Positions 43,032-44,890 of a stretch of DNA of 47,142 nt are shown in pieces; within the stretch, counting starts at the first letter, position 1, and each line of letters begins with the position of its first letter. Position numbers and translations under genes: made by a program. The notes under the pieces were generated by a model. The model made no database searches. It saw nothing but the letters and a program-made list of their open reading frames with translations, and was not told where the DNA came from. Source of the DNA: Escherichia phage 2G7b; sequence record NC_049954.1. One strand, written 5' to 3'.

Positions 43032-43175
43032 TATGCAATTGTTTACTAAAAGTTATTAAAAATGGGGCGTGGAAACGCCCCCAAAATAAAGGGTAATATA
43101 TAACAGAAGGTTTATATAGTAAGAAGCAAGGTAGTGCTTCTAAAGGAAGTGGCTTGAGGGCTCCACTTATATGTT

Positions 43176-43212
43176 GCGGAGGCAAAGCCTCCCGCAACAT
43201 ATCTTTTTCGTA
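43176..43212. terminator. bidirectional hairpin GTTGCGGAGGC-aaa-GCCTCCCGCAAC between Q and the convergent porin gene
   Basis: Long GC-rich inverted repeat with ATATCTTTTT on the plus side; sits right at the porin stop. Confidence 0.55.
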
Positions 43213-43219
43213 AGTCAGA

Positions 43220-44302
43220 TTAGAACTGATAAACCAGACCTACAGCGACGATGTCGTCGGTATCAATACCAGCTGTTTTGGTAAACTTACTATCGTCAAT
43301 TAAGTTGATTTTGTAATCAACAAAAGTAGACATGTTTTTATTAAAGTAGTAAGTAGCACCGACATCGACATACTTGACTAAGTCTCGGTCACCATGAACA
43401 CCAAGGTCTTTACCTTTTGACTGAAGGTAAGCAACAGATGGGCGCAGACCGAAGTCAAACTGATATTGTGCTACTGCTTCAAAGTTTTGTGCTTTGTTTG
43501 CAATATGGTTATTACCAAAAACGGTCATATTCTGAGTTTCAGAATATGTGGTAGCCAGATAGATATTGTTCGCATCATATTTCAGGCCTGCAGCCCATAC
43601 TTCCGCATTTTTGCCGGAGGCATTGAATTTGCTCTTACCATAGGCGACCTGACCGTCAGTGCGATCTGATTTAGCATAGGTTGCACCCACGCCGAATCCT
43701 TCATACTCATAAGTAGTGGAGAAACCGAAACCATCACCATTGGCTTCAGTTACGTCAGTGCGGTCATTTTTACCCTGATACTGAGCAGCAAAGTTCAGGC
43801 CATCGACCAGACCAAAGAAGTCGTTGTTACGATAAGTTGCAACACCAGTAGTGCGACCAGTCATGAACACATCTGTTTGGGTCCAGGTATCACCACCGAA
43901 TTCTGGCAGAACGTCAGTCCACGCACCGATGTCGTATGCTACACCGTAGTTACGGCCGTAATCGATGGAGCCGTAATCACCAAATTTCAGGCCTGCAAAT
44001 GCAAGACGGGTTTTGTCTTTGGAAGAACCTTGAGATTCAGCACGGTTGCCTTTGAATTCATATTCCCACTGACCGAAACCAGTCAGTTGATCGTTGATTT
44101 GGGTTTCACCTTTGAAGCCAAGACGGGCATAAGTAGTATCACCATCATCTGCATCATTAGAGGAGAAGTAGTGCTTGGCATTAACTTTCCCGTATAGATC
44201 CAGCTTGTTACTGTCTTTATTATAAATTTCAGCTGCCTGAGCAGACATCGCCATCAGTACTGATGCAGCTACAGCAGAAATTGCCACTGTTAATTTTTTC
44301 AT
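43220..44302 (-). CDS. nmpC: OmpC/OmpF-family general porin (NmpC / phage PA-2 Lc type)
   Basis: Start [23 protein letters not shown]|[16 protein letters not shown].. and C-terminal ..VAVGLVYQF typical of enterobacterial trimeric porins; antisense between Q and lysis genes as nmpC is in DLP12. Confidence 0.85.
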
Positions 44303-44728
44303 TGTACGCCCTTTTTTTGAACTATTATTAAAAAATGATGTCACTGCGCGATAAATATTCATCTAATCAATGTGATTATTTCAAGATGTAAGTTTTAGTT
44401 TCTCATTTAATTTGTGAAGTAGATCTCTATTTTTATCTGAACCTTTTCTATCTAATCCTATTCATGGCTCTTGTCTGAACAAAAATAAATCTATTAGCTA
44501 ATTTATATTAATGGCACTTATTTATAAGTGCTCTATAATTCTTTAGCTTAATTTAAACAAACTAAAAATAACATCGGAAATTATTAACTGATTATTTGTT
44601 GAAGTTTTCTTATGTATTTGTGGTGGTGTTTTGAACACTCGGTGGCATTCTCACAAATATCATTTAGTAGTTTACGTACGTAAAAAATTGGTTATGCTGT
44701 TAAGAGTGGTTACTTCGTCACACAGCTT

Positions 44729-44761
44729 AAACCCGCCGTCGAGCGGGTTTTTCCATTTTTT
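44729..44761 (+). terminator. strong intrinsic terminator upstream of S (AAACCCGC-cgtcga-GCGGGTTT + TTCCATTTTTT), candidate tR' for the Q-antiterminated late transcript
   Basis: 8-bp stem hairpin followed by T-rich tract; the late promoter pR' and qut site would lie within ~100 nt upstream but are not confidently placed. Confidence 0.65.
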
Positions 44762-44890
44762 GAGTCTCGATATTAGCTGATAACCCAATACCTGAGTTAT
44801 TCACTGACTCCGAATCTGTTACGTTTCTGCCTTTATTGCGATACGTAATATCCCCTTAATTTACACCCGCTTTGTCTGCGAGGTGGGGTT

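Follow-up and report, generated by a model that had tools for sequence, protein, structure and literature searches.

A porin cassette probably separates the antiterminator gene Q from its late promoter in Escherichia phage 2G7b

Escherichia phage 2G7b (NC_049954.1; the window analysed here is the whole stretch of 47,142 nt) carries an OmpC/OmpF-family porin gene on the minus strand between its antiterminator gene Q and its holin gene S. The same interval contains an AT-rich spacer and, at 44729-44761, a hairpin resembling a terminator. A late promoter directly after Q, the usual place in this family, was not found. A first-pass annotation had placed the late promoter and the Q site about 1.7 kb from Q. 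The analysis supports this placement by homology to Shiga toxin (Stx) phages, by a mapped start in the prophage Sp5, by linkage of Q to a conserved promoter core, and by covariation of Q with an element over the -35. With a probability of roughly 0.85, we conclude that the porin is cargo lying between Q and its late promoter, and that Q acts in trans and allows read-through of the hairpin. The locus itself is ordinary: it is the known NmpC/Lc porin cassette of lambdoid phages (DLP12, PA-2), described before, with the porin-between-Q-and-S order on record since the 1980s (GenBank J02580, the lc sequence of 1986), and the displacement of the promoter from Q is implicit in the existing literature.

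A relaxed promoter scan of 44600-44720 returned a single candidate, the late promoter pR' (44671-44698, plus strand), with a -35 of TTTACG at 44671-44676, a 16-bp spacer and a -10 of TATGCT at 44693-44698. The distance from the Q stop at 43031 to this -35 is 1.64 kb. The segment 44668-44761 aligns with sequence located directly after the end of Q, or overlapping it, in H-19B, phi345, a 933W-like O157:H7 prophage and Sakai Sp5; in the 933W-like prophage the aligned block overlaps the last Q codons. About 286 Stx-phage records carry the late-promoter block at 60-80% identity, and the phi345 record labels the aligned stretches Promoter (TTTACG, 16 bp, TATCAT) and Terminator.

The transcription start was placed with the help of Sp5, whose late start and terminated 3' end were located by differential RNA sequencing (dRNA-seq) and Term-seq, respectively, 258 nt apart (Sy et al., PMC7547250). 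In the Sp5 sequence, the distance from A746, seven bases past TATCAT, to position 1003, the last T of the second terminator's T-run, is exactly 258 nt, and the start is therefore the fifth base of TAAGAG. This placement fits the published distance to the sequence; genome coordinates were not matched because the Sakai record used is a later version. For 2G7b, we infer a start at A44705.

This start lies within an invariant core, GTTAAGAGTGGTTACTTCGTCAC (44699-44721, plus strand), which also includes the first 17 transcribed bases. The core has one copy in the window, where a 21-nt match at 3 mismatches is expected by chance 0.01 times. The core and the hairpin that follows it are nearly invariant across Q proteins only 46-60% identical (the whole set spans 46-100%). 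Positions +1 to +17 do not change between Q subtypes, and the -10 keeps a TAnnnT pattern with variable inner bases. The initial transcribed region of the core is presumed to be the pause region.

Q itself (42648-43031, plus strand) encodes a 127-aa protein of QuuD type in the Q21/Q933W family, matching PF06530 over its full length (E 6.7e-54) and the solved phage 21 Q chains (E 4e-8). Through residue ~120 it is 80% identical to the Q of the 933W-like O157:H7 prophage and of H-19B, and its C-terminal tail is shorter than theirs. A search of IMG/VR with the core TAAGAGTGGTTACNTNGNCAC gave 120 contigs. A Q21-family Q lay upstream of the core on the same strand, 6 to 2462 bp away, in every one of the 103 loci with enough upstream DNA. 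Distances from Q stop to core fell into compact classes (6, 18 and 30-41 bp) and extended ones (627-862, 1118-1690 and 2252-2462 bp); a porin occurred only with a QuuD-type Q, at 1669-1688 bp. Adjacency of Q and promoter is thus usual but not required, since many relatives are split in the same way. At the other extreme, in the most compact relatives (L016 and L096), the Q frame extends across the entire upstream element and the -10, ending 6 bp short of the core, so that the Q gene covers the whole of the promoter that Q targets.

The 17 bp over the -35 vary with Q subtype. In 2G7b they comprise the palindrome TTTACGTACGTAAA plus an A-tract (44671-44687, plus strand; -34 to -18), which we regard as a candidate Q-binding element. 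Six element classes were distinguished in the 103 loci: the QuuD/Q933W group carries TTTACG(TA/AT)CGTAAAAA or TTTACAATCGTAAAAAA, a second Q group TAACGCGTACGCAAAAA, a third GCGCGGTCCGCA, and three rarer groups three further palindromes. On clustering, each Q cluster was found with one element class only (normalised mutual information 0.80), and the same Q-element pair recurred at up to 13 different Q-promoter distances. Three loci (L015, L053 and L127) join another Q type and its own element to a core, hairpin and S leader of the type found in the window, and these combinations therefore indicate a mosaic joint between the -10 and the core. Covariation of this kind would be expected if the palindrome were the address read by Q and the core the part that contacts polymerase. 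The putative recognition helices of the Q clusters also differ between element classes.

The hairpin downstream of the start, our candidate for the promoter-proximal terminator tR' (44729-44761, plus strand; +25 to +57), has an 8-pair stem at 44729-44750 followed by TTCCATTTTT. A terminator consensus scan returned it as the sole plus-strand site between porin and S, and it is the best tR' candidate because no other terminator-like site precedes S. Taken together, the sites in the scan did not exceed chance (4 against an expected 2.1 +/- 1.5), and the z-score of the fold was only -1.7; the site is nevertheless more than a chance hit, since both the core and the position of the hairpin are conserved. 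A hairpin with a T-run stands at the same distance from the core in 50/57 sequence variants (128 loci; perfect-stem rule); most variants have it at +25 to +46, and divergent members carry unrelated stems at +33 to +60. The terminated late RNA of 2G7b is expected to be about 45-57 nt long. When the Sp5 late transcript was compared with the window by BLAST, only the first hairpin (+24 to +47) scored, and +1 to about +50 aligned in other comparisons; the 74-nt functional part of StxS gave no BLAST match in the window. A 23-nt near-copy of the Stx-type hairpin at 4483-4505 was set aside as a chance match because it lies inside a long open reading frame (ORF; 4282-5736).

The 188-bp spacer between Q and the porin has a different identity. 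It is 97% identical to the K-12 quuD-nmpC spacer and almost unchanged across 18 variants of porin-bearing contigs. Judging by these likenesses, its minus strand holds the porin 3' untranslated region (3'UTR), which is a homologue of the IpeX small RNA locus (43057-43219; ~163 nt, counted from the porin stop through the terminator T-run) rather than an alternative tR', a point that the first-pass annotation had not recognised. The ends used for ipeX are those reportedly given by Castillo-Keller et al. 2006. IpeX is a 167-nt DLP12 RNA that forms part of the porin transcript (PMC12197685) and represses ompC and ompF. The minus strand of the region (170 nt) folds at -53.6 kcal/mol (z -7.1). The terminator scan identified an intrinsic terminator of the porin/IpeX transcript at 43058-43081 (minus strand), with a stem at 43081-43064 of 7 pairs, 6 of them G-C, followed by ATTTTTAATA (-13.8 kcal/mol). 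A 15-bp hairpin with one bulge at 43169-43209 can form on both strands: on the minus strand it is the first IpeX stem-loop (-22.5 kcal/mol, z -4.8), and on the plus strand (-21.9 kcal/mol, z -5.5) it is followed by CTTTTT and may, from its structure, be a candidate stop for transcription leaving Q.

Given this plus-strand hairpin, the late promoter and tR' could instead lie beside Q (43032-43209, with the hairpin at 43169-43202 and CTTTTT as terminator), and polymerase would then run antisense through the porin to S. The hairpin is very stable, is followed by a T-run and lies about 140-180 bp past Q, a spacing similar to that of the lambda pR'-6S-tR' layout. The sequence beside Q argues strongly the other way, and we rejected a promoter at this position as very unlikely. 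A standard promoter scan (threshold 9/12) of 43020-43175 found no promoter-like site, a relaxed scan of the same interval gave two marginal 8/12 matches only, and no copy of the conserved core was detected near Q even at 3 mismatches. The segment is instead accounted for by the nmpC 3'UTR with IpeX on the other strand, which ends in its proper terminator and is almost invariant among porin contigs. In many relatives the plus-strand T-run is only TTTT. Where a related Q is followed by other cargo, the sequence next to Q is unrelated, and the core stays near the late genes. The lysis genes could also be driven mainly by host-controlled promoters in the AT-rich spacer, in which case Q would be dispensable and the cassette domesticated. 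An RpoE-dependent start of DLP12 maps to about 44351, and the sigma-E-like promoter GAACTA-N16-TCACT is identical in the window (44319-44351). Transcripts from this site would, however, run into the 44729-44761 hairpin with no Q on the polymerase, a complete late operon calls for strong expression at the right time, and the pairing of Q and element is conserved across many phages. Moreover, over 42600-44900, the stretch compared, the window is 100% identical to PhiR11_1, a deposited phage whose host is given as K-12 MG1655. We regard domestication, too, as highly improbable.

Several points weigh against placing cargo between Q and a hairpin-terminated pR'. The pR' hexamers are weak, and the standard scan did not report them because they match at only 8/12 positions. 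Within +1 to +17, every candidate for a sigma-dependent pause hexamer loses at least one of the two key positions in some variant. Plain linkage could partly explain the covariation of Q and element. The solved site of Q21 is a direct repeat, unlike the palindrome proposed here to bind Q. The mapped 3' end in Sp5 falls at a second terminator (+258; PMC7547250) and not at the homologous hairpin (+25 to +50); polymerase must therefore pass the first hairpin at least part of the time, and tR' may be partial. In at least 17 contigs, a PA-2-type variant of the hairpin has a C.U mismatch in mid-stem. For 2G7b itself, we infer start site, Q binding, pausing and termination alike. The Sp5 transcript, the PA-2-type mismatch and the low fold z-score fit a further alternative, in which the hairpin is weak or partial, lysis is kept silent in the lysogen by other means (for instance a weak promoter, RNA decay or control of translation), and Q serves mainly in anti-pausing or processivity. 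We consider this alternative unlikely, though deserving of some weight. There is no other terminator-like site between promoter and S, and unregulated holin and endolysin would be lethal; the hairpin and T-run are kept in place even where the stem sequence is entirely different; and phage 21, with the same Q family, has an annotated terminator at +3 to +50. RNAs of ~50 nt are easily lost in RNA-seq libraries, and the Sp5 data are therefore compatible with substantial termination at the homologous hairpin. The earlier description of the hairpin as a strong terminator and the best tR' candidate accordingly holds as to its being the best candidate and not as to its strength, given that Sp5 transcripts pass its homologue.

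With the porin as cargo between Q and pR', the locus would work as follows. The lysogenic-conversion cargo would be a 1.64-kb unit, about 43032-44667, made up of the porin, its CRP-type regulatory region, the IpeX 3'UTR and its own terminator. In the lysogen, the cargo promoter would yield porin and IpeX, as judged from Lc, NmpC and IpeX at 91-97% identity, and IpeX would lower host OmpC and OmpF. The promoter pR' would fire constitutively and halt at the +25 to +57 hairpin. On induction, Q made from the early rightward transcript would diffuse to the element over the pR' -35 and spacer and load on RNA polymerase while it pauses in the invariant first transcribed bases; polymerase so modified would then pass the hairpin into S, R, Rz and the remaining late operon. 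Since Q would act in trans on a DNA site, the 1.7-kb gap would cost nothing. Lying upstream of pR' in the opposite orientation, the cargo would stay outside the late transcript and be antisense only to early transcription through Q. The first-pass annotation had described the porin as antisense to late read-through; this part does not stand, as a late transcript starting at about 44705 runs away from the porin, which is antisense only to early pR-Q read-through.

The porin gene (43220-44302, minus strand) is intact, of NmpC/Lc type, and encodes 360 aa from MKKLTV. Its family and coordinates agree with the first-pass annotation: it matches Pfam Porin_1 (PF00267) over profile positions 1-337/337 (E 1.9e-151; 504.7 bits, cutoff 23.7) and the solved OmpC/OmpF/PhoE structures (E about 1e-137 to 1e-111), exceeds the cutoff of the NCBIfam OmpC subfamily model, and ends in ...GLVYQF with the usual terminal Phe. 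Residues 1-60 are identical to Lc and cover the 23-residue signal peptide annotated there. The suggested comparison with NmpC and PA-2 Lc gave 91% identity to each: 331/365 with PA-2 Lc and 316/346 with the K-12 NmpC fragment. Nearly all differences lie in four patches (residues ~181-190, 218-232, 263-268 and 335-345), which include two small indels, and the remainder is almost identical; by their distribution, the patches would fit surface loops. The proposal that the porin is expressed in the lysogen from its own promoter is consistent, by analogy, with the NmpC/Lc literature, with PnmpC (PMC11677980) and with IpeX (PMC12197685).

The porin ATG and the S ATG are 588 bp apart, and this spacer is 95% identical to K-12 and PA-2 (J02580). 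Its GC content is 0.24-0.28 over 44300-44700, compared with about 0.5 in the adjoining genes. A porin upstream region of ~590 bp had been proposed; the length and AT-richness agree, but ~225 bp of the spacer form the late promoter and S leader and lie outside the porin region. The AT-rich porin regulatory region proper spans 44303-44667 (minus strand) and contains a CRP-like site, TTTGTGAAGTAGATCTCTAT, at 44410-44430, which aligns with the CRP site marked in the PA-2 record. The K-12 promoter PnmpC is found no more than 199 bp from the start codon; deleting -199 to -1 abolishes its activity (PMC11677980). The PA-2 record places another 'CRP binding site' at the equivalent of 44705-44725, that is, +1 to +21 of the late transcript in the invariant core; TGGTTACTTCGTCACA at this position has one perfect TCACA half-site, and the label probably marks the conserved late-promoter core and not porin regulation.

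Two further sites were noted in this spacer. The sigma-E-like promoter at 44319-44351 (plus strand) is aimed at S from inside the porin 5' region, and its sequence is identical in K-12 and PA-2; the -121/+650 amplicon and the primers given in PMC7918800 (citing Rueggeberg 2015) would put its start at ~44351. A perfect inverted repeat, GCACTTAT-TT-ATAAGTGC, at 44514-44531 overlaps a plus-strand promoter-like sequence, ATGGCA-17-TATAAT (44511-44539, 10/12); its left arm is not conserved in K-12 or PA-2.

Among known systems, the closest is the K-12 prophage DLP12 (qsr'), in which quuD, ipeX, nmpC and essD/rrrD/rzpD have the gene order and strands seen here. The gene nmpC was reportedly mapped to the qsr' prophage in 1985. 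The late-promoter block and hairpin of DLP12 are identical to those of the window, but its nmpC is split by IS5 whereas the 2G7b porin is intact; the porins differ in the four short patches, the S leader of the window is 17 bp longer, and DLP12 is a remnant, whereas the window has the look of a complete phage. A phage Q-type antiterminator controls the DLP12 lysis operon (PMC7918800, citing Rueggeberg et al. 2013). The PA-2 lc region (J02580) has the same porin regulatory region, CRP-type site included, and the same late-promoter block upstream of the lysis genes, and S and the late promoter are unannotated in that 1986 record. It differs in the variable porin patches and in a G-to-T change, absent from the window, that produces the stem mismatch; the change, GCGGG to GCTGG in the right arm of the hairpin (aligned to 44743-44747), occurs in PA-2 (L004) and at least 17 IMG/VR loci, for example L010. 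A DLP12-type segment with IS5 inside nmpC also occurs in the phage 434 isolate 434B (L132, OL657227; 41277-44868), marked only as a 'region of 434 nonhomology' with the late promoter unannotated. This laboratory phage evidently acquired the segment by recombining with the cryptic prophage of K-12. It is a plaque-forming 434 derivative, and an even larger Q-promoter gap is therefore tolerated.

The Stx phages H-19B, 933W and Sp5 (Q - pR' - StxS - tR') share with the window the TTTACG..CGTAAA type of -35 palindrome, the core and the first hairpin. In contrast to 2G7b, their promoter overlaps the last Q codons, with 18 bp from Q stop to core; they have a second terminator at +258 and the 74-nt StxS RNA, both absent from the window; and their cargo (tRNAs, stx) follows the promoter in sense orientation, whereas that of the window precedes it on the opposite strand. 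Phage 21 (Q21 - pR' - Q-binding element - sigma-dependent pause element - terminator; 6P18 and others) has a Q of the same PF06530 family and shares with the window the layout of a promoter and a terminator (a candidate in the window) ending at about +50, its own being annotated at +3 to +50, but its promoter lies 7 bp past the Q stop. Its Q-binding element is the direct repeat ATTGAGCA/AATGAGCA, to which the palindrome of the window has no sequence similarity, and the TAAG-containing block of the window is 6 bp nearer the -35 than the phage 21 pause element. The alignment with the phage 21 pR'-qut region that had been suggested as a check thus yielded no counterpart beyond the TAAG tetramer; phage 21 was abandoned as a template for the binding and pause elements, and the Q933W/H-19B group proved the informative one.

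The first late gene, S (44891-45106, plus strand), encodes a holin of the P21 family (PF04971, E 2e-35) and the second, R (45106-45603, plus strand), a lysozyme (PF00959, E 1.3e-45); Rz/Rz1 and a minus-strand bor gene follow. At the gathering threshold, Rfam found no family in the window besides the lambda cIII thermoregulator (32890-32948, minus strand; 88.5 bits, E 2e-20), and a permissive search of 42950-44950 gave two matches only, both at chance level. Over the 2.3-kb interval 42600-44900, identity is 100% with Escherichia phage PhiR11_1 and 99% with ~15 further deposited phages; 34 phage records hold at least 80% of it. The arrangement, annotated quuD / porin / essD, was found in 2396/5426 complete E. 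coli genomes at a coverage of at least 80%.

The gap between Q and core also houses other genes. We counted 19 non-porin insert classes of 0.6-2.5 kb with a GC content of 0.31-0.44, in 17/19 of which the ORFs lie on the strand opposite to Q (IMG/VR loci L008, L014, L015, L017, L025, L028, L029, L041, L047, L049, L052, L056, L060, L081, L095, L100, L101, L116 and L117). Their content includes a KAP P-loop NTPase matching PADLOC PDC-S20 (E 1e-177), a PDC-S42 match, an HNH endonuclease matching PDC-M68A and CBASS-type effectors, NA37 nucleoid-associated-like proteins, each beside a large uncharacterised ORF, an esterase and many genes without assignment; some of the inserts thus match candidate anti-phage defence genes. 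No target-site duplications or repeated junctions, which would have pointed to site-specific insertion, were seen around the inserts; a GTTTAC...TAAAA likeness just past Q is probably due to chance. In prophages of E. coli 042 and CFSAN061768 (L001 and L002), a Q 84-86% identical to that of the window is followed by a plus-strand terminator-like hairpin ~100 bp past Q, a minus-strand lipocalin-family gene and a YbgA-family gene, with a helix-turn-helix gene before the holin in L002 only. A broader picture, in which the Q-promoter gap is a general hotspot (at least 20 classes), the palindrome is the Q address and QuuD cross-activates Stx late promoters, is possible but tentative, and we hold it to be doubtful as a whole.

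For annotation, the late promoter of this Q family is to be found through the core (TAAGAGTGGTTAC...), not by nearness to Q. If the palindrome is the Q-binding site, the specificity classes of Q can be read from sequence. QuuD-type and Stx-phage Q proteins share TTTACG-NN-CGTAAA, and cross-activation between co-resident prophages is therefore possible. Going beyond the present finding, the hotspot and the Q-subtype element could help to find prophage cargo and to predict such cross-talk. OmpC, which IpeX would lower, is PA-2's own receptor. The cassette is a textbook moron, by which the prophage would replace the major porins of its host with its own, so that outer-membrane permeability would be changed and OmpC removed, as in the work on PA-2 and IpeX.

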